In this document: one piece after another, positions 8,989 to 23,574 of the stretch
Position numbering within the stretch: the first letter of the stretch is position 1
How the letters are laid out: each line of letters begins with the position of its first letter
Source: Candidatus Arthromitus sp. SFB-mouse-Japan
Lineage (GTDB): Bacteria; Bacillota; Clostridia; Clostridiales; Clostridiaceae
Assembly (NCBI RefSeq): GCF_000270205.1
Contig: NC_015913.1
Coordinates: 480,001 to 512,000, forward strand
Reading direction: 5' to 3'
Length of the DNA stretch: 32,000 nt
Notes under the pieces: generated by a model
Seen by the model: the letters and a program-made list of their open reading frames with translations, nothing else
What the model was told of the DNA's origin: nothing
Databases searched by the model: none
Made by a program: the position numbers and the translations under genes

Positions 8989-10410
8989 ATGGATTGTTGT
9001 TTAGTTATAGATATCTCAAAAATAAATTTGAAAATAATGTGTATTACACTTAGAAATGATAAAATATTTCTACAAGAGGTTCATAGATGCTCAAAAATTA
9101 CTGCAAATGGTTTGAATTCTATGAAATATTTAAATGTAGATAAAATAATAAAGGAAATAAATGAGGCTTTAGTTAGTGTTAAACAAATAGGGTATAATAT
9201 TGAATCAATTTCTATAAATTCTTCTATAAATGAACCCGTTATTTTGGATGATAAAAATAATTTAATAATGGAAATATACTTAGGCATAAATATGAAATCT
9301 ATTTATTTAAATAAAATAGTAAATGAATTAGGGGCTGCGTATATTTATAGAAAAACAGGAGTTGAACTTAATAGTAATGACACTTTATGTAAACTTTTAA
9401 TGTACAAAGATTTGTATAAAAGTGAATTTAATAATATCAGAAAAATTGTTTATTTAAGTGACTATATAGGCTATAGGTTAACTGGAAATTTATTCAATGA
9501 GAGAACTCAACTTGGATTTTCGCAGTTATTTAATTTTAAAAACCAAAATATTGATAATGATATAATTGATTATGTAGGCTTTGGAAACGAAGTAGAGTTT
9601 AATATAGTAGATTATGGGAAAAGTATTGGTAAGTGTAAAGTGAATGGGGTAGATGTAATATCACCTTATGGTAATACATTATTATCATCATTATTTACTA
9701 CCCGTATATTAAATAAAAATTCTATATTTATAGTTAATTCTAACGAGGGTATTATTGGATGTACCGAAGATTTTTCTAAAATGTATCTTGAAGGTTCTAA
9801 ATTTGGATTAAATCATCAGATGATTAATAGTGATTTAGTAAAAATATTTAGATATATACCTTGTTATAAGTTAGTTGATGATTTTTTGAAAAATATAGAA
9901 AATAACTTTATGGTCGAGAACTTATGGAATATTTTAGATAGTAATGGAGATATAAACTATATTATAGATTTTGATAGTGATATATTTAAAAATTCGGCGG
10001 TATTAATGAATATCGTAAAATATTATTTTGATTTTAAATTAAATAGTATGCCAAATTCAATTTCTGATTTTATAAGAATTGTTTACAATAGTTTTGCTGT
10101 GTATTATAGGAAGTGTATAAAAGATTTTGAAAAAGTAACAGGTGGAATATTTGATAGTATATGTATGGTTGGAGAGTATAGTTTAAATAATTTTTATAAT
10201 CAATTTATATCTGATATTACATTGAAGGATTTGGAAATTGGACCTAAAGATTCTGGAATTATAGGGAATGCAATAAATCAGTTTATTGCGATTGGTAAGA
10301 TAAAAAATATTTATGATATAGATGATTTGCTTAAAAATTCATTTAATTATTCAAAGATAAAATATAGTGGGAGAAAGATTGAGTACCAATATATAGAAAA
10401 TATAGTTTAA
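8989..10410 (+). CDS. FGGY carbohydrate-kinase-fold protein, rhamnulokinase-like, with degenerate catalytic motifs
   Basis: The 473-aa ORF follows AGGGGTGA. It is collinear by eye with E. coli RhaB (CLVIDIS..., REVHRC, SISINS, LSDYIGYRLTG, ICMVGEYSLNNFYNQFISD, IGPKDSGIIGNAINQ). The phosphate-binding loops and the catalytic Asp position are substituted (see findings). Confidence 0.7.
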   Translation: MDCCLVIDISKINLKIMCITLRNDKIFLQEVHRCSKITANGLNSMKYLNVDKIIKEINEALVSVKQIGYNIESISINSSINEPVILDDKNNLIMEIYLGINMKSIYLNKIVNELGAAYIYRKTGVELNSNDTLCKLLMYKDLYKSEFNNIRKIVYLSDYIGYRLTGNLFNERTQLGFSQLFNFKNQNIDNDIIDYVGFGNEVEFNIVDYGKSIGKCKVNGVDVISPYGNTLLSSLFTTRILNKNSIFIVNSNEGIIGCTEDFSKMYLEGSKFGLNHQMINSDLVKIFRYIPCYKLVDDFLKNIENNFMVENLWNILDSNGDINYIIDFDSDIFKNSAVLMNIVKYYFDFKLNSMPNSISDFIRIVYNSFAVYYRKCIKDFEKVTGGIFDSICMVGEYSLNNFYNQFISDITLKDLEIGPKDSGIIGNAINQFIAIGKIKNIYDIDDLLKNSFNYSKIKYSGRKIEYQYIENIV

Positions 10411-10415
10411 TTTCT

Positions 10416-10448
10416 AAATAGCTACCTCTAGGAGGTAGCTATTTTATT
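10416..10448 (+). terminator. Rho-independent terminator after the FGGY-like gene
   Basis: A perfect 13-bp stem pairs aaatagctacctc (10416-10428) with gaggtagctattt (10432-10444). A TTTTATT tract follows. Confidence 0.8.
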
Positions 10449-10518
10449 GTTTAAATATGGATTTATTAGAATATTTTATGGTATAATTAGGGATAATTTT
10501 AGTTTGGGGGATAGTTTG

Positions 10519-11514
10519 ATGAAAAAATATGTAACACTTGTTCCGGAGTCAAGTCATCATATATATAAGATAGGATTGGGTACATATGATATATTAAAAA
10601 GTGGATTATCTGATGAAAAATTGAGAGAATTATTGACTGATTTTTTAGATATGGGAGGAAACGTAATAGATACCTCAATATCTGAGTTAGGATTGAGAAG
10701 GGATGAAGTAGAAGAATCTCAAAAATTTATTGGTAGATGGATTAGTTCTTGTAATAGACGTGAAAGTATTTATTTGATTTCTAAAAGTTCGTTTCTTTTA
10801 AGTAATAATACTTTTGATTCTTTATTGAATGATTTAAATATTAGTCTAAAAAATTTAAATACCGATTATTTAGATTTATTTTTAATTGATGGCGATGATG
10901 AGAAAACAGATGTTTCATTAATACTTGGATATTTAGAGGATATCAAAAAGGATGGAAAGATATTAAATTATGGATGCTCTAATTGGAAGCCTTATAGAAT
11001 TAGACAAGCTATGGAATATGCAAAGAAACATAATATAGGAGGTTTTGTAGTTAATCAAATGTTATGGAATGCGGGAGTTTTTGGAATGGATGAATCTAAA
11101 ATAGAAGATAAGTATGTAAAGATGGATTCTGAAATGATGGATATACATAATGAATTTAATATATTAGCCATGCCATATTCCGCATTAGCAAATGGTTTTT
11201 TTGCAAAACTTTATTTAAATGAAATGGAGCCACAAACTGTAGATATGGAAGAATTAAAACTAACTTCACCATATTATACAGAAAAAAATTTGGATTTATA
11301 TGAAGAATTGAAAATCATAGGTGAAAAGTATATAGCATCACCCTCATGGGCTGCACTTGGATATTTATTTAATCAGAATATAGAAACGTGTTCTATAATA
11401 TCTGTTAATAATTTAAACCAGTTAAAGGAAGCCTTTGAAGCTGTTGATATAAAATATACTTTCGAAGATTTTAAGAGTATAGATATGTTTAATATTGATG
11501 AAATTTTAGTTTAA
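10519..11514 (+). CDS. Aldo/keto reductase family protein with a non-canonical active-site tetrad
   Basis: AKR-like blocks are IGLGTYD, NVIDTS, SQKFIGRW, YLISKS, YLDLFLIDG, GCSNW and VVNQMLWN. ATG 10519 is preceded by TTGGGGGA. The track's TTG 10447 lies inside the upstream terminator and was rejected. Confidence 0.7.
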   Translation: MKKYVTLVPESSHHIYKIGLGTYDILKSGLSDEKLRELLTDFLDMGGNVIDTSISELGLRRDEVEESQKFIGRWISSCNRRESIYLISKSSFLLSNNTFDSLLNDLNISLKNLNTDYLDLFLIDGDDEKTDVSLILGYLEDIKKDGKILNYGCSNWKPYRIRQAMEYAKKHNIGGFVVNQMLWNAGVFGMDESKIEDKYVKMDSEMMDIHNEFNILAMPYSALANGFFAKLYLNEMEPQTVDMEELKLTSPYYTEKNLDLYEELKIIGEKYIASPSWAALGYLFNQNIETCSIISVNNLNQLKEAFEAVDIKYTFEDFKSIDMFNIDEILV

Positions 11515-13385: not shown

Positions 13386-16300
13386 ATGAGTGATAGTTTG
13401 AGAAAGTATCAAGATATTTCTGTTAATTTAACTTTAGATAATAGGACAATATATTTAGATAATCTTCACGATGAGGATTTTTTAGATTTATATATTTTAA
13501 AAAGTTATAACGAAGAAGTTTATTCCAATTTTATTAATTTTATATTTTCAGAGAATTGGGATATATTAAAAATTGTTGAAGACCCTTTAACTTGGCAGAG
13601 TGATAGATTATTTAAAATTAGGGAGTTAGCTAATAGGAATAAAAAAGAAAAGCTTGAGAAGTTTGAGGTGAATGATGATTTTTCAAGCATAAAAGAGTAT
13701 GAGATATTTTTAGATGATTTTTATAAGGGAAACATAAACAAAAATTTGGATTTATTAAATGCGCAGTATAGTAGCATGAATGATGTTATTTTAAATTTAG
13801 ATAAGTTGTGTAAAGAAAATAAAAGTAGGGATTTATATATAGGGTATCCGTTTGTTGAGGGATATATTGACAGCACAAGTTTTGTTCGTATGCCATTTTT
13901 TTTAATACCTGTTGAAGTTTTTAATGATAATAATGAGTGGTTTATAAGGAAGAAGATTGAAAGTAAAATAAAGATAAATAGATATTTGATTATTATACTT
14001 CAAAGGATTTTTAAACACAAGAATTTGGAAATTAAGCTTGATTATGAGTTTAAGAAAGATTTTAAAAGAGATATTTTAAAATTAGCATTAGATTTTTTGA
14101 AAAGTTTAGATATAAGTTTTAGTAATAATGAAGGAATTTTAGATAATAAGTTTGATGAATTTTCAGGTGTATTAAGAAGTTTAAGTAGTGATAATCCATA
14201 TTTAGAGATTAAAAATTATTTGGTTCTTGGTGATTTTCAGGTAATAGGAGAAGAGTATGAAGATTATGAATCACTCATTTATGTGGATATATCTAATACT
14301 CTTGTAGGGAGATTAATTTCTGGAAGTGATAACAAAGAGAAATACAAGGAAGATATAAACAAAGAAATTTATGTGAGAGATAAACTTGATTTTAGTCAGA
14401 AACAATCTATTTGTCTAAGTGATGAGAGTTATATTACACTTGTAAATTCAAATTTGGATGTGGGCAAGGATACTACTATAACTAATTTTGTATTTGATAA
14501 GATTTGTAAAAATAAGAGTTTGCTTATAATTTCTAGGGATAAGGAATATTTGGAAAAATTGTATAATGAATTCTCTTTTACAAAATCAATTATTATGGAC
14601 TTATTCCAAAATGATTTTTATCAAAAATTTTATAGAAGTTTTGATAGGATACTTAATTTTCGAGAAGATTTTGAAATAAAAAGGGTATTTAATGAAATTT
14701 TAAAAGAGATTAATGAAAAGTATAATTTTATAGAAGATTCTAATGGCATTTACAATAAAATAGAGAGCTTTGGTTTGTCGCTTAAGGATATGTATGAATT
14801 AACTATGGATGTAAGTGACAGTAGTATTGATAAAATGTCATTTAATAAATTTAAATTGAATAATCCTGTTTCTGGTTGTACATTCAATGAGATTGTGCAC
14901 GCAATTGATGAAATTAAAGATAAAAATTTGATAGATATTTTTATATCTCATAAGGAATATTTAAATAAACATAAAATTTTAAATTTAATCAGAGAAGATT
15001 TTAATTTCGAAGATATAAATTTATATTTAGATAAATTAAAGGCTCTTAGACAAAAATATGATAAGTTAGCTTTAAATTTTGAAAAAAATAAATGTAGTCT
15101 TAGTGTGATTAGGTTATTCAAAGAGAATAAATTTTCTAAAGATGAGATTATAGATAAGTGTTTTAAATATAGTGAATACTACATTGAATCTGAAAATGAT
15201 AATAATTATGATTCTTCAGAATCTTGGTTTAAAAGTTTAGGTTTTGGGAAAATCAAAAGAAAAAGTATTGAACTTAACAGGCAAGCTTTATTAAATACTG
15301 AGATGTATTATGAAGCTATAAAAGAAATTGATCATGATATTAGTTTTATTGGAGATATAGTAAAGCATGATAAATTTGAATTTATTAGGAATAGAATATT
15401 TGATTTTAATGATGTAACGCATTATACAGGTAATCTTTTGAATATGATGGATACTTTTCATGAATTTATAGAGTATAGTTATAAAATTAAAAATTTCAGT
15501 ATGCTTGTTAATGATATATTAGAATATATATATGATAATTCTATCAATGAGAAAATGATGCGAGATAATTTAGATAAAATTTTGAAATTTTCTATATTTG
15601 TAAATATTTTAAGACGTCATAATAAACATGGGGATACACTTGAGAATTATAAAATGGTTGATAGATATTTTGATAATCTTATGAAATTATTTGATAAGAG
15701 AGCGTGTAATTTAGAAAGATTTGTATTAAATAAGGTTCTGTCTGAAGCAAAGGAAAGTTTAATTAATAATGATAATAAAATAGATAAAAATTCTTTTTCA
15801 AATATTTCTAGATATTTAATTAAAGATTTTATAAGCACTTTTAATAAGGAATGTTTAAAATTATTTCCATGTTTTTTAATCGATTATGATAGTTTGTCTT
15901 CAAATATACCTTTAATCGAAGGATTATTTGATTATATAGTTTTTGTAGATGGACATAATTATTTTTTAGAAGATATTTTACCTGTAGTGTATAGAGGTAA
16001 AAGATTGGTTGTATTCGGAAGTGATAATCAAATTAATTGCAGTAGTAAGAGTTATAATATAATATCTTATGATGTTACAGAGATTTCAAATAATGTGTTT
16101 AAATTTGTGAGTGATAAATTTAATAGGGTAAATTTAAAATATATGTATCCGTCTGGAAATGAAATTTTTAGGGATATATTAAATAGTTTATTTAGTATTG
16201 AAGACATTATTTCATTACCTAGAGACAGGAAATATTCAGATATTGACAATCCATTTATGATATTTACTATAGGGAATAAAGGTATAGAGAATATAAATGA

Positions 16301-17303
16301 ATATGAGGCTAAATTTGTTGTAGATCTTTTATTTAAACATTTGAAAATTAAGAAATATGAGGATTCTATTGGAATAATTACAATTAGTAAAAGTCACGCA
16401 GATTTAATAAAAAAAGTAATTAGTGATAGATTGAAGGTAGATGAGGAATTTAATTTCTTGTATAACAGGGAATGTAAAAAGTATAAATCAAATGCTGGAA
16501 TATACATAAGTAGCATTCCTGAAATTTTATATAAGAAGATAGATATTGTGATATTTTCTCTAGGTGGTGAGAGAAATATAGAAAATGAGGTAGAAATTAA
16601 GTTTAGTGATATAGAAGGTCGGAATTGTAGAAATAAACTAAATATGTTTTTAATGATGACTCAATATGAAATGGATATAGTTACGTCACTCAGTATAAGT
16701 GATATTGAGAGTAAAGAATATTCAAATGAAAACGCAAATATTTTAAAAAAATATTTGCATTATGCCAATGAAATTTATAATGGTAATGTGGATAAAATTA
16801 TGAATGAGTTAAATTGTGATGAAAGTGATAATAGTAAAGTTAATAAAATATTAGATATTATTTGTGATAAGTTACTTGATAGGGGACTTATTGTAGAGAA
16901 AAATTTCGGAACTTCATTTTATAAATTTGATTTTGCGATATATGATAAAGACCTTAAAAAATATGTTTTATTTGTAGAACTTGAATCCAGTATAGTTGAT
17001 AAATTCAAGTGTAGGTTGGAGCAATATATAGATTGTTTTATTTATTTTGATAAACTTGGATATAATGTTTTGAAAATTTGGAGTAAAGATTTGTGGAGTG
17101 ATATAGATTTTCAGGTTGAGAATATAATTTATAATTATTTTTTAGTTAGGGATAAATTGTTGAAGTATAATTCTAATAGAAAGTGCGTTGATAGTTTGAT
17201 TAATAGAAATGGAGTATTAAGCAAGTTTGTTAAGATTATTGAAAATAGAAGAATAGGAATGCTTTTCTCTGAGAAGGCTGATAAAGATTTTATAAAAAGA
17301 TAG
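13386..17303 (+). CDS. Large DUF4011-like / Upf1-like SF1 helicase-fold / C-terminal restriction-endonuclease-like (DUF559/MTES_1575-type) protein with degenerate ATPase motifs
   Basis: The N-terminal block DLYIGYPFVEG...FVRMPFFLIPVEV resembles the DUF4011 core. The helicase scaffold is recognisable: SNLDVGKD at 14448-14471, FDYIVFVDGHNY around 15930-15962, and LVVFGSDNQ at 16005-16031. The C-terminus YKFDFAIYDKDLKKYVLFVELESS...LGYNVLKIWSKDLW resembles the REase-like tail. ATG 13386 follows AAGGTGA; the track's GTG 13347 is less likely. Confidence 0.65.
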   Translation: MSDSLRKYQDISVNLTLDNRTIYLDNLHDEDFLDLYILKSYNEEVYSNFINFIFSENWDILKIVEDPLTWQSDRLFKIRELANRNKKEKLEKFEVNDDFSSIKEYEIFLDDFYKGNINKNLDLLNAQYSSMNDVILNLDKLCKENKSRDLYIGYPFVEGYIDSTSFVRMPFFLIPVEVFNDNNEWFIRKKIESKIKINRYLIIILQRIFKHKNLEIKLDYEFKKDFKRDILKLALDFLKSLDISFSNNEGILDNKFDEFSGVLRSLSSDNPYLEIKNYLVLGDFQVIGEEYEDYESLIYVDISNTLVGRLISGSDNKEKYKEDINKEIYVRDKLDFSQKQSICLSDESYITLVNSNLDVGKDTTITNFVFDKICKNKSLLIISRDKEYLEKLYNEFSFTKSIIMDLFQNDFYQKFYRSFDRILNFREDFEIKRVFNEILKEINEKYNFIEDSNGIYNKIESFGLSLKDMYELTMDVSDSSIDKMSFNKFKLNNPVSGCTFNEIVHAIDEIKDKNLIDIFISHKEYLNKHKILNLIREDFNFEDINLYLDKLKALRQKYDKLALNFEKNKCSLSVIRLFKENKFSKDEIIDKCFKYSEYYIESENDNNYDSSESWFKSLGFGKIKRKSIELNRQALLNTEMYYEAIKEIDHDISFIGDIVKHDKFEFIRNRIFDFNDVTHYTGNLLNMMDTFHEFIEYSYKIKNFSMLVNDILEYIYDNSINEKMMRDNLDKILKFSIFVNILRRHNKHGDTLENYKMVDRYFDNLMKLFDKRACNLERFVLNKVLSEAKESLINNDNKIDKNSFSNISRYLIKDFISTFNKECLKLFPCFLIDYDSLSSNIPLIEGLFDYIVFVDGHNYFLEDILPVVYRGKRLVVFGSDNQINCSSKSYNIISYDVTEISNNVFKFVSDKFNRVNLKYMYPSGNEIFRDILNSLFSIEDIISLPRDRKYSDIDNPFMIFTIGNKGIENINEYEAKFVVDLLFKHLKIKKYEDSIGIITISKSHADLIKKVISDRLKVDEEFNFLYNRECKKYKSNAGIYISSIPEILYKKIDIVIFSLGGERNIENEVEIKFSDIEGRNCRNKLNMFLMMTQYEMDIVTSLSISDIESKEYSNENANILKKYLHYANEIYNGNVDKIMNELNCDESDNSKVNKILDIICDKLLDRGLIVEKNFGTSFYKFDFAIYDKDLKKYVLFVELESSIVDKFKCRLEQYIDCFIYFDKLGYNVLKIWSKDLWSDIDFQVENIIYNYFLVRDKLLKYNSNRKCVDSLINRNGVLSKFVKIIENRRIGMLFSEKADKDFIKR

Positions 17304-17325
17304 TAGGTTACTACTATCTTTTTTT
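17294..17325 (+). terminator. Rho-independent terminator after the helicase-like gene
   Basis: A 10-bp stem pairs aagatagtag (17297-17306) with ctactatctt (17311-17320), extended by A/T pairs. A T7 run follows. It overlaps the stop codon. Confidence 0.8.
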
Positions 17326-17348
17326 GATTACAAAATTATTTCAAAATG

Positions 17349-17377
17349 TTGAACAAAATATTGAAATATGTTAATAT
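17349..17377 (+). promoter_or_regulatory. Putative sigma-A-type promoter for the essC-like gene
   Basis: TTGAAC (17349-17354), a 17-nt spacer, then TAATAT (17372-17377), about 40 nt upstream of ATG 17418 (SD AGAGGGGA). It is embedded in an array of CAAAAT(A/G)TTGA repeats. Confidence 0.45.
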
Positions 17378-17417
17378 GTTGTTTACAAAATATTGATAAA
17401 ATTTGTAAGAGGGGATT

Positions 17418-20400
17418 ATGAAAAGGGTAAAAATTTATGTTTTCTATAAGAACAAGCTTATAGAATGGAATATTGAAAGCTTTCAAAATAGTTCAGTTGA
17501 ATTTTTATTAGATAAAGATATAACCTTATTTTCAAGAGACTATACATTTCATTTTGAATATGAAAATGGGAATTATATATTGAAATCTTTTAATGATTTT
17601 GAGCTTATTTATAAAGATCAAAAATTAAACTCAAAATTGATTATAGATGGAGATATAATTATATGTGATTTAATTAGGGATAAATCTAAGGTTATTTTAT
17701 CAATACAGTACGAAGATTTTTCAAATTGTAATTTTTATAAGTGTAAAGTGAATGAAATTTCACAGATAAAGATTGGAAAAAATGAATATGCTGATATTAT
17801 TTATGATAATGATGATATGCTTGACTATCATATTATTTTAAATTTTAGGAAAAATAGTGTGGAAGTTATAAGTAATGGTATTGGTTGTTATCTAAATAAT
17901 AGGAAGATTTCAAAAGGTGAAGCTTTATTTGGAGATACAATTTTTATTTATGGACTTAAGATTATTTATTTAGGAAAGTATATTGCAGTAAATAATCCAA
18001 ATGGAAAAGTATCTTCAAGGTTAAAATTTTCCAATGATGATATTGAAGTAATGGAAACTAGGAGTTTTACTAATATTAATAGGGAAATTGAAGATGATGG
18101 TAAAGTATATTTGGATTTAGATGAAAATGTAGAGTTTAGGGTTGATGCACCTGTTATTTATAATCATAATTCCTTGAAATTTTTGTTTATTGGATTAATC
18201 CCATTAAGCTTAATAGTTTTAGCAGTTTCTATGTTATTTTTGTATTATATAGGGGCAAATTCTTTTTATTATCTTTTAGTTAGTTCGATTGGAACTTTAG
18301 TTATTGTATTACTTATATGTTTATTATTTTATTTTAAAGTAAATAGGAGAAGACAAGAAGAAAAGTACAATTCTTATTTGGATGATAAGTTTAAGGAAAT
18401 ATCAGTAATTAAAGATGAATGGGTAAGGGCTTTATCTCAAAGATATCCAAGGACTATTGATTGTTATGAAAGTGTTATTAATTTTGATAATAATGTTTGG
18501 AATAGAGTTGGAAGAGATAATAATTTTTTGAATTTGACAATAGGACAAGGTGAATCTTATTTTGGGAATTTAAAAATATTAACTAAAAATGTTCATGATA
18601 ATAGACTTTTTGATTCCCATAAAATACTTAAGAAGGTGCCAATAACTATACCTCTTAAAAAGATAAGTAAGCTTGCAGTTGTGTCAGACATGCATAAAAT
18701 TTATGATGTATTTAAAAATTTTATAGTACAATTTACGAGCAATAATTCTTATAAGGACTTGAAAATTGTTACGATTGCATCAAAAGATCATGAAGAAAAC
18801 ATAAATTATTTAAAACTAATTCCTCATGTGTATTCTGATAAAAATGATTTTAGATATTTTGCTATAACTGATGATGAAGTAATTGATGTTTTACATAATT
18901 TACGCAAAATAATTAAAGAAAGGGAGAGCATTTTAAGACAGAATACTAATTATGTTTTTAAGACATCTTACGTTGTTTTTTTATTTCATAATTTTACTAC
19001 CCCAATGAATCAATTTTTAAATTATATAAAGAGTGTTAGTAGTAAGATAGATGTTCATTTTGTGATTTTTACTATAAATAATAAGGATATACCTGAGTGC
19101 TTTAAATATATACTAAATGTTGGTGAAAGAGAGCAGATTCTTTATAACATTCGAGAAAATGGAATTAAAAAAGTTGTTTTATCTTATGACTATGTTGACA
19201 TAGCTAATTTGATTGATATAGATAAATTTACGGATACATTATCTAAGATCAAATTAAGCACAGAAGGAGTGATTAAAGGATTTGAAAGTAGATCAATTTT
19301 TGGTTTATATAATGCTTCTTCTGTTAAAGATCTAAATATAGAAGATAGATGGAGAAAGAATAAGTTATTAAGTTCTTTAAATATTCCTGTGGCTACTAAG
19401 AATTTTAAAGATGTATTTACTCTTAATATACATGAGAAGCATGATGGAATAAATGGAATAATATTCGGTGAAAGTGGAGTTGGAAAGACCGAATTATTGA
19501 AAAATATGATTCTTTCTTACTCAATAAACTTAAGTCCAAATCTTTTAAATTTCATAATACTTAAATCTAATTATAATATAAAGTTAAATAATTTTGTACA
19601 TCTTCCACATGTGATTGATATTTTGGATAAGGAAGATATTTCAGAGAAGAATAGATTAATAGAACTTATAAAAAATGAAATTAGTAGGAGACAAAAATTA
19701 TTTGATAGTATAGGTGTTAAAGATATAAACGCATATTTGAATACTTATGAAAATTATTCCGATACTATAATAATTCCACATTTGATTATTATTATAGATG
19801 ATGTTTGTAAAAATGATATCGACTTTATACGTGAGTTATCACAGTTATATTCATCGATATTGAGTATTGGAATTCATATTATTGTATCTTCTAATTGTGT
19901 TAGTGCATTTGTTAAAGAAGAGAAAATTTTGAGTAATTTTGATTTCAAAGTATGTTTTAGGTTATCTGATGTGAGAGATTTGTTTGAAATTATGGGAGAA
20001 AATGAAATTTTAAATCCCAATTCCACAGGTAAATTTAATATAAGATTGTCGGATAGTGTTATAGTTAATAATGTGCAAATTGTATATTCGAATTGTTATG
20101 TTGGGGATTATGAGGAGCAATTAGCTATAGAACTTGTAAATAATTGTGGTACTATTAGCAAAAAGATCATAAGAGCTTATGAGACGAATGAATTTTTGCT
20201 TCAGGAAGATGAAATAATTAATGAAATTTCAAGTCTTTCAACAAATATAAATATGAGATATATGTCAGCATTTAATAGTTCACTTAGATATTTAAGTCTT
20301 TATGATTTATCTGGATATAAGAGTAATTTTAATGGGTTTATGTGGACTGAATCTGAGAAACCTTGTTCGGCAATCGTAGGAGTTGTTGATGATCCTAAGT

Positions 20401-21701
20401 ATCAGGTTCAAAGATTTTTAAGTGTGGATTTTAAGAATATTGGTAATTTATTTGTATTTGGATCACCGGGAACAGGAAAGAGTAATCTTATTAAGACACT
20501 TATTTATTCTTTATGTTGTGAATATAAGGAAAGGAATTTAAATGTGTATATAGTTGATCCTAATACTAGGAATACAGATTGTTTTGGTTATGCTCCACAT
20601 GTTAAGAATATAGCTTATACTAAAAGTGAAATTAACTCGTTATTTAAAAAAATATTGGAAGAGTTTGAACTTAGAAAAAAAATATTTGATAATTTAGATA
20701 TTTCAACTATAGATCAATATAAACTTAGAGTTGGGGAAGAATTACCAAATGTAATTTTAACAATTGATAGTGTACAAGAAATTATAGATGATAAGTGGGA
20801 TTATATGAAATTTATCAGAATGATAGCAAGAGACGGTAAATTTTATGGAATCTATGTTTGCATAACTTCATCTGAATATGGAAATATAGAAATGAACTTA
20901 AGTGAGTATTTTGATAATAAATTCGTATTGAGGTTTAATGATGAATCTTTATACAAAAAAATATTAGGAAGGGAATATAAATTGAATTCCAAATTTAAAG
21001 GAAGAGGTATAGTTAATTATAGAGATTCTTTAGGTGATAGGATTCTTGAGTTCCAAGTTGCTCTTCCTATGTTAAGTAATAATGATGTTGATCTTAATAA
21101 TAAATTAAAGCGTTTATTTATTCACATGAATGAAATAAATAATAAGATTTATGGTGGATCAGAAATTATGGATGTATTAGAACATGAGAGTAATGAAGAG
21201 AAGCAATTAATTGAAAGTAGAACGGAATTAGATTTAAATAGTTTTTTAGATAATTTTATTAATGATTGTAATAATTTGTGTGTTGTACATGATTCTAAAA
21301 ACAATGATGGAATTTTATATAATATCTATAAGATTGTAGAAGAAAAGGGAATTAAGTCTTATTTTTTTCAAAATAGAGATTTAGATGAGAATGAGGTAAA
21401 AGAATTTATAAATTGGCTAGATTCTGTTACTGATGAGAGAGTTTGTGTAATTATAAGTAATATAGAGAAATTGATATCTTTGTGCAATGATGAGATGATA
21501 GGATCATTAAATTCTATTTTAGAGAGGCAATCAAGAAAAATGTATTTTGTTACGTCGATATATAGGACTAGTAATATAGATAATAGATGTTCAAAGGTAA
21601 TAGATTTATTACTTTTAAATGGGGCAAGCATAATTGTAAATGATGATGAGAATGCAACTATTTTATATAAATCTCAAGAGAATCTCATCAAGATAAATTA
21701 G
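17418..21701 (+). CDS. essC: Type VII secretion (T7SSb) EssC/YukB-like FtsK/SpoIIIE-family ATPase
   Basis: The 1427-aa ORF has two FHA-like N-terminal modules (for example IGKNEYADIIYDND...ISNGIGCYLNNRKISKGEALFGDTIFIYGLKIIY). Two hydrophobic helices follow (about aa 255-305). Then come a P-loop-less module, D1 with GESGVGKT (19467-19490), D2 with GSPGTGKS (20460-20483), and a short P-loop-less C-terminal module. Confidence 0.85.
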   Translation: MKRVKIYVFYKNKLIEWNIESFQNSSVEFLLDKDITLFSRDYTFHFEYENGNYILKSFNDFELIYKDQKLNSKLIIDGDIIICDLIRDKSKVILSIQYEDFSNCNFYKCKVNEISQIKIGKNEYADIIYDNDDMLDYHIILNFRKNSVEVISNGIGCYLNNRKISKGEALFGDTIFIYGLKIIYLGKYIAVNNPNGKVSSRLKFSNDDIEVMETRSFTNINREIEDDGKVYLDLDENVEFRVDAPVIYNHNSLKFLFIGLIPLSLIVLAVSMLFLYYIGANSFYYLLVSSIGTLVIVLLICLLFYFKVNRRRQEEKYNSYLDDKFKEISVIKDEWVRALSQRYPRTIDCYESVINFDNNVWNRVGRDNNFLNLTIGQGESYFGNLKILTKNVHDNRLFDSHKILKKVPITIPLKKISKLAVVSDMHKIYDVFKNFIVQFTSNNSYKDLKIVTIASKDHEENINYLKLIPHVYSDKNDFRYFAITDDEVIDVLHNLRKIIKERESILRQNTNYVFKTSYVVFLFHNFTTPMNQFLNYIKSVSSKIDVHFVIFTINNKDIPECFKYILNVGEREQILYNIRENGIKKVVLSYDYVDIANLIDIDKFTDTLSKIKLSTEGVIKGFESRSIFGLYNASSVKDLNIEDRWRKNKLLSSLNIPVATKNFKDVFTLNIHEKHDGINGIIFGESGVGKTELLKNMILSYSINLSPNLLNFIILKSNYNIKLNNFVHLPHVIDILDKEDISEKNRLIELIKNEISRRQKLFDSIGVKDINAYLNTYENYSDTIIIPHLIIIIDDVCKNDIDFIRELSQLYSSILSIGIHIIVSSNCVSAFVKEEKILSNFDFKVCFRLSDVRDLFEIMGENEILNPNSTGKFNIRLSDSVIVNNVQIVYSNCYVGDYEEQLAIELVNNCGTISKKIIRAYETNEFLLQEDEIINEISSLSTNINMRYMSAFNSSLRYLSLYDLSGYKSNFNGFMWTESEKPCSAIVGVVDDPKYQVQRFLSVDFKNIGNLFVFGSPGTGKSNLIKTLIYSLCCEYKERNLNVYIVDPNTRNTDCFGYAPHVKNIAYTKSEINSLFKKILEEFELRKKIFDNLDISTIDQYKLRVGEELPNVILTIDSVQEIIDDKWDYMKFIRMIARDGKFYGIYVCITSSEYGNIEMNLSEYFDNKFVLRFNDESLYKKILGREYKLNSKFKGRGIVNYRDSLGDRILEFQVALPMLSNNDVDLNNKLKRLFIHMNEINNKIYGGSEIMDVLEHESNEEKQLIESRTELDLNSFLDNFINDCNNLCVVHDSKNNDGILYNIYKIVEEKGIKSYFFQNRDLDENEVKEFINWLDSVTDERVCVIISNIEKLISLCNDEMIGSLNSILERQSRKMYFVTSIYRTSNIDNRCSKVIDLLLLNGASIIVNDDENATILYKSQENLIKIN

Positions 21702-21721
21702 GAATTTTGGAGGACCTATAT

Positions 21722-21967
21722 ATGATTTATATACAAGTATATGTGCCAGATAAAAATAGATTTTTTGATTATAAGGTATCTAGGAAAATAAATATTTGTA
21801 ATTTAAAAAGCTTAATTGTTGAATCAATATATAATGTGAAATGTAATGATGAATTTATAAAATGTAATTATGCATTAATGGATTTTAATTGTAGAAAAAG
21901 ATTGAAAGATGATGTAAATTTGTATAATTATCCTGTTTATAATGGATATAAATTTTTGTTAATATAG
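21722..21967 (+). CDS. esaB: YukD/EsaB-like ubiquitin-fold protein
   Basis: The 81-aa ORF from ATG 21722 has GGAGG at 21709-21713 with 8-nt spacing. It matches B. subtilis YukD by eye over its full length: MIYIQVYVP...FDYKVSRKINICNLKSLI at the N-terminus and RLKDDVNLYNYPVYNGYKFLLI at the C-terminus (the L-x-D-x-gI-x-nGd-x-L-x-iL pattern). It starts 20 nt after essC. Confidence 0.65.
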   Translation: MIYIQVYVPDKNRFFDYKVSRKINICNLKSLIVESIYNVKCNDEFIKCNYALMDFNCRKRLKDDVNLYNYPVYNGYKFLLI

Positions 21968-21977
21968 AACTTACAAT

Positions 21978-22001
21978 GGCATGCTTATATATAAGCATGC
22001 C
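21978..22001 (+). terminator. Hairpin (terminator or attenuator) after the yukD-like gene
   Basis: The perfect palindrome ggcatgctta-tata-taagcatgcc has a 10-bp GC-containing stem. It is followed by CTTTAATTTT, so the T tract is weak. Confidence 0.55.
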
Positions 22002-22059
22002 CTTTAATTTTAAAACATATATAATAAATGAATATTTTTATTTTATTTTTGGAGGTAAG

Positions 22060-23574
22060 ATGATTAATAAAATAAAAACTCTTATTATGATAGGTTTTAT
22101 TGCAGGATTAATAACTAATTTTAGTGTAATCACTAATGCTAAAAATAATATGGGAACAGAAATTTTAAATGGTTATGGTACCGGCGAATTAATTTATTTA
22201 ATTAATGAAAATGGAGAATTGGTTATATTAAATAGTGATATGGAAGATATAGTTCCAGAGGATATGCCTAAACTTTTATCTATTGATATTTATGATGATG
22301 GTTTTGTTGCATTAACGAGGGAACATGAACTTATTTCTTCAAAAAATTTTACAACATCAAAAAATATAAGTAAAATTGATGGTAGATTTTTATTAACATT
22401 AGATGGTAAAGTATCTTCATTTGATATGGAAAATTCTAGAATATTTAAAGATTTTAAAAATGTTAGGGATATAAAAGCTTTAACTGATAATGCACTTATG
22501 ATATATGAAGGTGAGGATAATGTAAGTATTGTTAATATTGGGAATTCTAAAGTAATGAGTATAAAAAATTTATTTGAAGTGAAAGAGGTAAATATTTTTA
22601 GTGATGATTTGATATTAATTATTAAAGAAGATGGGAGCATGATAGGATTCGGTGATGAATATAATAAAGTCTCAAAAATTGTAGAATCAATTAAGAATGC
22701 AAAAAAATTTATACATCAGGCAGATAATTTATATGTTGTAACTTATGATAATAAGGCAATACCAATAATTGAAAATGGTTTTAAAGCACCTGAAGAATAT
22801 TTATTGGATGTATATGACATTACTGTTAACGAATTTTCAAATAGCGAAGGTGAATTTTATAAGTCTTATTTTGTAACTACGGAAGGTAAAGTTTTTTATT
22901 ATATACAAAGTGATAATGAAATAAGTGATTTTAATAGGCAAAAAATTGAATATATGAATAGTTTTGATAATGTAGAGAAGGTATATGAATCAGGATATTT
23001 AACTATAGTACTTCATAGGGATGGATCTATAACTATACCTTTTAATATTCATCATGAATTAAATGGTATTACTGGAGTAATTAGTGTTGAGCTTAAAAAT
23101 CAAAGTTATGTCGTTTATTTAGATGATGGACAAGCTATAACTTCACTAGATAATATTATTTTAAATGATAGAAGTTCATTTGTTAAACGAGATGAAATTT
23201 CAGATTTATATGATTATTTCAATGTAATTTCTTTAAATACTGTGAATAGAGAACTTAATAAGGAAGATTTTGAAAAGATGAGAGAATCTATTTTAAATGA
23301 TAAGGAATCATTTAAAAATGTTATAAGGAGTTTATGTTTAGATAGGAAATTTATATTGATAGATAATAAATATGATGAAATAATGGATAAATTATATTAT
23401 TCTATTTTAAATGTGAAGCCAAGTTCTGATGAATATAATCATATGTTATATGCAATAATTGAAAAATCAGAGGAGAATAATATGACTAAGGAACAAATTT
23501 TAATTCAGATTGTGAATTATATATTTGAAAATCCACTATTTGAGGACATATTTAAGAAATTTACTCAAATATAG
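22060..23574 (+). CDS. Secreted repeat protein (degenerate RCC1-like / beta-propeller-like blades) with a C-terminal helical DUF4214-like region
   Basis: ATG 22060 follows GGAGG (22051-22055). The Sec-type signal peptide is MINKIKTLIMIGFIAGLITNFSVITNA. About 8-9 units of roughly 40 aa share a hydrophobic-strand-(D/E)-(D/N)-G-x-hydrophobic pattern (INENGELVIL, TLDGKVSSF, IKEDGSMIGFG, TTEGKVFYY, LHRDGSITIPF, YLDDGQAITS). The track start at 21976 lies inside the upstream hairpin and was rejected. Confidence 0.5.
   Translation: MINKIKTLIMIGFIAGLITNFSVITNAKNNMGTEILNGYGTGELIYLINENGELVILNSDMEDIVPEDMPKLLSIDIYDDGFVALTREHELISSKNFTTSKNISKIDGRFLLTLDGKVSSFDMENSRIFKDFKNVRDIKALTDNALMIYEGEDNVSIVNIGNSKVMSIKNLFEVKEVNIFSDDLILIIKEDGSMIGFGDEYNKVSKIVESIKNAKKFIHQADNLYVVTYDNKAIPIIENGFKAPEEYLLDVYDITVNEFSNSEGEFYKSYFVTTEGKVFYYIQSDNEISDFNRQKIEYMNSFDNVEKVYESGYLTIVLHRDGSITIPFNIHHELNGITGVISVELKNQSYVVYLDDGQAITSLDNIILNDRSSFVKRDEISDLYDYFNVISLNTVNRELNKEDFEKMRESILNDKESFKNVIRSLCLDRKFILIDNKYDEIMDKLYYSILNVKPSSDEYNHMLYAIIEKSEENNMTKEQILIQIVNYIFENPLFEDIFKKFTQI

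Follow-up and report, generated by a model that had tools for sequence, protein, structure and literature searches.

The stretch of DNA analyzed here (the window: 32,000 nucleotides of contig NC_015913.1, positions 480,001 to 512,000) carries two adjacent genes that resemble essC and yukD of type VII secretion systems (T7SSs). Exact lookups place it in the chromosome of Candidatus Arthromitus sp. SFB-mouse, one of the segmented filamentous bacteria (SFB), and its G+C content is 23 to 33%, with a strong coding-strand GC skew. SFB are textbook Th17-inducing gut commensals, attaching to the ileal epithelium and passing antigens to host cells. Their protein-export repertoire is barely characterized, and the organism is hard to manipulate. 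Three genes, SFBM_0459 to SFBM_0461, are the focus of this work. SFBM_0459 (BAK56238.1, 1427 amino acids [aa]) is named in databases either "hypothetical protein" or "FtsK/SpoIIIE domain-containing protein"; SFBM_0460 (81 aa) and SFBM_0461 (504 aa) are both called "hypothetical." The first two genes and the signals around them are as follows:

17349..17377, + strand: predicted sigma-A-type promoter of the essC-like operon, from the alignment of seven SFB-lineage upstream regions
17418..21701, + strand: SFBM_0459, EssC/YukB-like membrane ATPase, 1427 aa, from profiles, motifs, and the family alignment
21722..21967, + strand: SFBM_0460, putative YukD/EsaB-like ubiquitin-fold protein, 81 aa, from hhalign and weak Pfam matches in the family
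21978..22001, + strand: predicted intrinsic-terminator hairpin closing the essC-yukD-like operon, with a 10-bp stem and a GCATGC core

As far as sequence comparison can tell, SFBM_0459 belongs to the EssC/YukB lineage. Pfam FtsK_SpoIIIE matches it twice (4e-29), and the NCBIfam EssC model TIGR03928 covers residues 257-1240 (model positions 38-1041 of 1296). By a profile of 13 family members, the closest solved relative is Bacillus subtilis YukB (PDB 9qks, E 6e-83), followed in the PDB search by EccC and EssC fragments; profile positions 241-962 align to 9qks 240-965 nearly residue for residue. Two transmembrane (TM) helices are evident as hydropathy peaks, and the domains fall out in this order:

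residues 1-245: FHA region
residues 251-275 and 282-305: TM helices
residues ~311-640: DUF/D0
residues ~641-940: D1
residues ~960-1245: D2
residues 1250-1427: variable C-terminal domain without a P-loop

D1 has the Walker A motif GESGVGKT at 684 and the Walker B motif IIIDD at 794; D2, with GSPGTGKS at 1015 and TIDS, is homologous to it (hhalign 98.9%). The P-loop of D2 is present in all family members, and at 68% identity D2 is conserved better than any other domain. The FHA match (residues 117-166) is weak in SFBM_0459 itself (E 0.0028) and is found in 11 of the 13 family members, at best with an E of 1.2e-8; the first 105 residues match no profile. Inspection of the alignment shows that the phosphothreonine positions of FHA2 read G-K and D-x-H, the canonical residues being G-R and S-x-x-H. 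The C-terminal 178 aa lack a P-loop and, by hhalign, any similarity to D0, D1, or D2, and a PDB profile search with this domain returned nothing significant. Large indels separate the lineages here, and mean family identity is 31%, compared to 68% for D2. The initial annotation, made from the sequence by eye, had credited this protein with a full EssC architecture ending in four FtsK-like modules. The alignment to YukB, both TM helices, D1, and D2 bear out the family assignment; at the N terminus, a single weak FHA match stands where two FHA domains had been read. Of the four modules, only D1, D2, and the YukB-type DUF/D0 can be verified, the C terminus having no P-loop.

The 81-aa gene starts with an ATG behind a GGAGG ribosome-binding site (RBS), exactly 20 nucleotides (nt) past the essC-like stop, the spacing first given for it. 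That it encodes a YukD-like protein is indicated by hhalign, which aligns its family over the full length (94.3%, E 1e-7) with four small YukD-like proteins whose genes lie next to those of non-SFB EssC homologues; PF08817 matches two of the four. The window protein has no match at Pfam thresholds, nor in NCBIfam or PADLOC. Within its family, Pfam matches are all weak (UBL_UBAC1 in 5/7, YukD PF08817 in 2/7, and ubiquitin in 2/7), the best PF08817 match (E 0.0038) falling below the gathering score. HMMER with the 81-aa profile against 1.84 billion representatives found SFB-lineage proteins only and no bridge to YukD; a word-indexed search with the protein had the same outcome. A phmmer search of the PDB with a bona fide YukD, from the non-SFB locus L013, gave zero matches. 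The SFB protein ends in KFLLI, with no C-terminal Gly-Gly. An essC-like gene followed by a gene for ~81 to 84 aa is the order at all SFB-lineage loci and at the nearest non-SFB relative, L012. We regard SFBM_0460, with moderate confidence, as a very divergent YukD-like protein.

L012 is a metagenomic locus and, by gene order, the closest non-SFB relative. It has two pairs of an EssC gene (1532 and 1518 aa) and, after it, a YukD-like gene (84 aa in both), which flank 13 small genes (94 to 155 aa), one of which weakly matches WXG100 (L012, 5478-19632). This is an unusual double-ATPase T7SS arrangement.

The expression signals of the SFB pair are well conserved. The predicted promoter consists of a -35 hexamer, TTGAAC (17349-17354), a 17-nt spacer with a TG, and a -10 hexamer, TAATAT (17372-17377). 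Across seven lineages, the ~80 nt 5' of essC hardly vary and the hexamers not at all, although the proteins are only 36 to 50% identical. The region is identical in type whether the preceding gene is the helicase-like gene described below or an AI-2E transporter gene. The box CAAAATRTTGA occurs twice within 17340-17417 (~17342-17352 and ~17386-17396), which suggests a conserved, putative regulator-binding site. At the far end, a GCATGC-core hairpin with a T-run lies 3' of the 81-aa gene in 7/7 lineages compared. This hairpin (21978-22001) and the one behind the helicase-like gene (17300-17317) had both been called initially, and both are present. With its own conserved promoter and terminator, the essC-yukD-like unit therefore appears to be a self-contained bicistronic operon. 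Rfam gave no match for the window as a whole or for the conserved leader of essC.

Eight SFB-lineage loci were compared (the window, L001, L002/L003, L004, L005, L015, L016, and L017), including Candidatus Dwaynia gallinarum from chicken and several metagenome-assembled genomes (MAGs). All eight have, at one chromosomal site, the essC-like gene, the 81-aa gene, a ~500-aa gene, and then a cytidylate-kinase-like gene. Across this deep divergence, the essC-like open reading frame (ORF) is intact in every lineage, at 1300 to 1500 aa. The EssC-like family comprises 14 clusters at 36 to 100% identity, and then there is a gap, other EssCs being ~25% identical. In searches of 5.8 and 1.8 billion proteins, the EssC, 81-aa, and 504-aa families were found in the SFB lineage only. 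A scan of genomes yielded two further SFB-lineage MAGs and two irrelevant FtsK matches, and a JGI metagenome scan for the clade yielded zero matches.

Identity across lineages is 57 to 83% for the housekeeping flanks, 36 to 50% for EssC, 44 to 56% for the propeller protein (SFBM_0461), and 40 to 46% for the helicase-like protein; the last three genes appear to be faster evolving yet vertically inherited. Measured against L017, a relative whose EssC is 79% identical to that of the window, dN/dS is 0.155 for EssC, 0.24 for the 81-aa gene, and 0.18 for the 504-aa gene, with neighboring genes at 0.07 to 0.15. These values, together with the intact ORFs and the conserved promoter and terminator, argue that the unit is functional and is not a decaying remnant.

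No other T7SS gene was found around the pair, in a search that reached ~27 kb upstream and ~20 kb downstream. WXG100 (PF06013) matched no window ORF of at least 60 aa, antisense and small ORFs included, and EssA, EssB/YukC, and EsaA/YueB matched no window ORF either. All of these are also absent from the called genes 10 kb past either window end. Thus, the initial report of a locus missing esxA, essA, essB/yukC, and esaA/yueB, with no WXG100 candidate among its ORFs, holds up; a complete esxA-esaA-essA-essB set just outside the window, named there as a result that would speak against it, does not exist within 10 kb of either side. There is also no pseudokinase gene in the surveyed flanks. Each of the three nearest non-SFB EssC loci carries WXG100-like genes.

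All flanking genes carry housekeeping Pfam assignments, from opp to tRNA synthetases and ribosomal proteins. Within the window, these are the opp ABC transporter, thyA/folA, FGGY kinase, aldo-keto reductase, AI-2E transporter, and glyoxalase genes upstream and the cytidylate-kinase-like, NAGPA, two-component system, GH129, and hemerythrin genes downstream. The 10 kb before the window holds peptidase M28, thrS, groES/EL, a methyl-accepting chemotaxis protein gene, and prepilin peptidase, and the 10 kb after it holds M23 peptidase, ytxC, infC, rpmI, rplT, trkAH, and pheST. A coupling protein of a mobile or conjugative element was considered for SFBM_0459 and rejected, given the fixed housekeeping context, the lack of an integrase or relaxase, and the EssC-type FHA/DUF architecture.

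The immediate neighbors of the operon are the following:

13347/13386..17303, + strand: helicase-like giant, ORF call with AAA_11/AAA_12 and a restriction endonuclease (REase)-like MTES_1575 region, apparently outside the essC-yukD module
17300-17317: hairpin ending the helicase-like gene, with a T-run after it, from the sequence
22060..23574, + strand: SFBM_0461, predicted Sec-exported protein, 504 aa, from AlphaFold2 (AF2), Foldseek, and weak family Pfam matches

The upstream giant combines Upf1-type superfamily 1 (SF1) AAA_11/AAA_12 domains with an MTES_1575 REase-like C terminus. This agrees with the helicase and nuclease parts of its first description; DUF4011, the third part, was not detected in it. 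In 4/4 orthologues the helicase motifs are degenerate, with Walker A reading GK[D/N/I] rather than GK[ST] and motif II reading DGH rather than DE, yet the protein is conserved, with 40 to 46% identity over a full-length chain. This suggests an SF1 helicase scaffold that is catalytically dead. An anti-phage helicase system was considered; the scores for NCBIfam ProA (77.5 bits for a cutoff of 1500, over a partial region only) and PADLOC PDC-S37 (83 bits, partial) are below threshold, and with the degenerate motifs this candidate was dropped. The gene is missing from L001 and L016, both of which retain the EssC trio, so that the neighborhood found in relatives is conserved for the essC-yukD-like pair but not for the helicase. 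No helicase-like neighbor is present at the nearest non-SFB EssC loci. We take this gene to be a separate transcription unit and a bystander outside the module.

Downstream, the SFBM_0461 ORF runs from 21976 to 23574; its true start is the ATG at 22060, preceded by a GGAGG, and yields the 504 aa of the database entry. The AF2 model (mean predicted local distance difference test score [pLDDT], 81.6) has a signal peptide at ~1-27 with an A-x-A-type cleavage site, a β-propeller at 33-367, and a helical domain at 383-502. Foldseek matches are to BLIP-II, UVR8, RCC1, and the HERC2 RLD (E 1e-9 to 1e-6). In the family, RCC1_2 (11/21 members) and DUF4214 (5/21) both match weakly. What was first described as a Sec-signal repeat protein is thus predicted to be a Sec-exported, RCC1-like β-propeller with a DUF4214-like tail. 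It always adjoins the pair and evolves at a similar rate; this adjacency proves nothing by itself, because there is a terminator in between and synteny extends over the whole region. SFBM_0461 is a candidate extracellular accessory, as yet unproven. A role as an analogue of EssB, EsaA, or TsgL was rejected for its wrong topology and fold. At L001 (17290-19019), the cytidylate-kinase-like gene is followed by two small ORFs (116 and 86 aa) and a gene for a 262-aa protein that matches DUF4214 (E 3e-12). The propeller tail is of this domain type as well, a hint that the lineage has its own family of exported DUF4214 proteins.

Farther away, a 227-aa ORF (window positions 30401-31084) encodes the best conserved protein of the region, 76 to 83% identical where its neighbors are 57 to 75% identical, and has no Pfam match. 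In two other mouse-SFB assemblies (L008, 11476-13715, and L009, 14028-15780), GH129 is split into two ORFs (252 and 478 aa) and both two-component genes are shortened (histidine kinase, 343 aa; response regulator, 169 aa), reflecting either strain-level pseudogenization or assembly error. In L017, the response regulator, histidine kinase, and GH129 genes are fragmented, and an IS1595-family transposase gene and an aminoglycoside-nucleotidyltransferase-like gene lie at their position (9771-11326).

We think it probable that the pair is a functional, vertically inherited T7SS-type unit of reduced form, specific to the SFB lineage, whose cargo and any partners would be encoded elsewhere. Among the options raised in the initial annotation, an EssC-YukD pair with unknown partners fits best, having its own conserved operon, purifying selection, and a place at every SFB-lineage locus. 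Several observations weigh against this reading. SFBM_0459 scores 456 bits with TIGR03928 and does not reach the equivalog cutoff of 778.4, and the three-P-loop, D1-to-D3 architecture is not there, D3 being unrecognizable. In the most divergent orthologue (P0014/L002), the Walker A motif of D1 is deleted (YNNE---NKV), and in P0013/L015 it is mutated (GESGTDKT). The AF2 model of the 81-aa protein, from a shallow alignment of four sequences, is unreliable (pLDDT 59), and although it shows ββα...β elements compatible with a β-grasp fold, Foldseek found no significant fold match for it. Finally, WXG100/LXG substrates and an EssB-like partner may sit elsewhere in the 1.6-Mb genome.

How might such a unit work? 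D1 is the motor in canonical systems, and its catalysis is essential in known T7SSs. With its Walker A motif and the DD of its Walker B motif, D1 could be the motor here as well. D2, which is the best conserved domain and has a Walker A motif with a DS Walker B, may have a regulatory role in which it binds nucleotide. That the P-loop is deleted or mutated in D1 of two orthologues but kept in D2 of all is the reverse of what canonical T7SSs would lead one to expect. In characterized T7SSs, D3 is the domain that recognizes the substrate. We imagine that the short, fast-evolving, P-loop-less C-terminal domain replaces it as a lineage-specific end for cargo recognition. In B. subtilis, the FHA domains and the DUF of YukB hold YukD between them like a clasp, and YukD helps recruit the pseudokinase YukC (Oka et al., PMC12637312); by analogy with this YukB-YukD complex, the YukD-like protein of SFB would be clasped between the FHA region and DUF/D0, stabilizing the EssC oligomer in the membrane. 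The cargo and any membrane or cell wall partners would then be encoded outside the ~27 kb upstream and ~20 kb downstream that were searched.

One can go further and envision a minimal, T7SS-derived export machine independent of WXG100 proteins, made up of an EssC-like protein with a new cargo domain, a YukD-like clamp, and possibly the propeller as an outer partner, that delivers proteins specific to the lineage (and host), either where the filament attaches to the epithelium or between filament segments. We consider this bolder proposal unlikely.

A more ordinary explanation would be a T7SSb whose locus is split, with EsxA, EssA, EssB/YukC, and EsaA/YueB encoded elsewhere in the chromosome and working canonically with the pair. 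In its favor, the FHA region and the DUF, which bind YukD and YukC in B. subtilis (PMC12637312), are retained. However, core genes are clustered in all described subtypes, a to j (PMC11217815), and the ~52 kb around the gene is housekeeping only, which holds in eight lineages; in addition, EssC is well under the equivalog cutoff and lacks D3, its FHA2 reads GK and D-x-H, and there is no pseudokinase gene nearby. A split locus therefore strikes us as rather unlikely. The missing partner genes and the degenerate D3 might instead mark the nonfunctional remnant of a once complete T7SS that is being lost, as might the D1 Walker A motif lost in one lineage and damaged in another and the faster evolution compared to housekeeping neighbors (36 to 50% versus 57 to 83% identity). 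Yet ORFs of 1300 to 1500 aa are intact in all lineages, dN/dS is 0.155 to 0.24, D2 is 68% identical across the family, and the promoter, RBS, and terminator are invariant, so that loss in progress seems quite improbable. The "stripped-down remnant" suggested at the outset is apt insofar as the unit is a reduced derivative; decay is contradicted by purifying selection.

The unit could also have been repurposed beyond effector secretion, for protein transfer between the mother segment and its intracellular offspring or for envelope remodeling in the filament and holdfast life cycle. It has been kept in a reduced genome of ~1.6 Mb with no canonical substrate gene nearby, has lost the cargo-recognizing D3, and has a strongly conserved promoter region whose repeated box suggests tight regulation. 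All the same, we judge repurposing improbable: to our knowledge, every characterized EssC or EccC protein is a secretion ATPase, and the variable C terminus resembles that of EssC variants in Staphylococcus aureus and Listeria, in which C-terminal variation is tied to effector specificity. The last possibility, a previously proposed module of two translocase-derived giants in which the helicase/REase-like protein acts with EssC, we find highly improbable. In the window, L002, L004, and L005, the two genes do lie side by side on one strand, but this co-occurrence is uninformative because all of these loci lie within one syntenic lineage. The EssC trio persists in L001 and L016 in the absence of the helicase gene, the two genes are separated by a terminator hairpin and by a conserved promoter of essC's own, non-SFB EssC loci have no helicase, and the Walker A motif and motif II of the helicase are degenerate.

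If our preferred reading of a reduced, functional unit is correct, this conserved and selected EssC-YukD pair is a concrete candidate export machine in SFB. It would also be the most reduced T7SS organization so far and could reveal the irreducible core of these systems (the FHA-DUF-YukD clamp, D1, and D2) and whether WXG100 proteins and D3 are dispensable. So far it has been annotated only as hypothetical or as an FtsK domain protein, and it is new to the literature searched, in which no paper links SFB, Arthromitus, or Savagella to T7SS or names these locus tags. Arthromitus is likewise not named in the survey of T7SS subtypes discussed next (PMC11217815) or in the examined parts of its supplement.

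Garrett, Higginson, and Palmer (2024) described subtypes T7SSa to T7SSj, all of which have the ATPase gene and WXG100 genes (in T7SSi, the core TsxA could not be singled out among the latter) and most a YukD-like TsxB (PMC11217815). With T7SSb (YukB/YukD/YukC/YueB/YueC/YukE in B. subtilis and EssC/EsaB/EssB/EsaA/EssA/EsxA in S. aureus), the SFB unit shares an ATPase with an N-terminal FHA region, two TM helices, DUF/D0, D1, and D2 and, encoded beside it, a small partner without Gly-Gly that is putatively of ubiquitin fold. Its FHA, like that of T7SSb EssC, which has no phosphothreonine-binding site (PMC11217815), is without the canonical GR/SxxH residues. Unlike T7SSb, its surveyed flanks contain no EsxA/WXG100, EssA, EssB/YukC, or EsaA/YueB; a short, unrelated-looking domain takes the position of D3; identity to any non-SFB EssC is ~25%; the ATPase is under the TIGR03928 cutoff; and HMMER searches missed the YukD-like protein. 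The FHA-DUF-YukD elements of the B. subtilis system are thus retained with no pseudokinase gene nearby.

The clostridial subtypes T7SSf to T7SSj also pair an EssC-type TsxC with a YukD-like TsxB and add noncanonical accessory genes (PMC11217815), a pattern that the nearest non-SFB EssC loci fit (DUF6382-FHA and a TadZ-like ATPase at L013 and LytTR at L014). At the loci of those subtypes there are WXG100 genes, and also genes for kinases, phosphatases, or FHA proteins; the SFB locus has none of these. T7SSg (TsgA1/A2, TsgB, TsgC, and TsgL) is another small system with an EssC-type ATPase, a YukD-like protein, and a β-propeller protein. However, TsgL is a cytoplasmic propeller of the DUF5050/YWTD type and lacks a signal peptide, whereas that of SFB is RCC1-like and predicted to be Sec exported, with a DUF4214-like tail; TsgC has no FHA, and the SFB EssC does; and the SFB locus has no WXG100 gene. 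DUF5050 is not among the families listed for the SFB propeller. On these counts the locus falls outside T7SSg. The best fold matches of SFBM_0461 are instead the seven-bladed BLIP-II/RCC1-like propellers (3qhy, E 1e-9), from which it differs in an identity of 10 to 14%, TM-scores of 0.3/0.5, and its extra helical, DUF4214-like domain. BLIP-II is a secreted bacterial protein-binding propeller, and we know of no link between BLIP-II/RCC1-like propellers and T7SS. The SFB organization as a whole matches none of T7SSa to T7SSj. Should the minimal, WXG100-independent export machine be real, it would stand as an eleventh T7SS organization and a candidate route for communication between SFB and their hosts.

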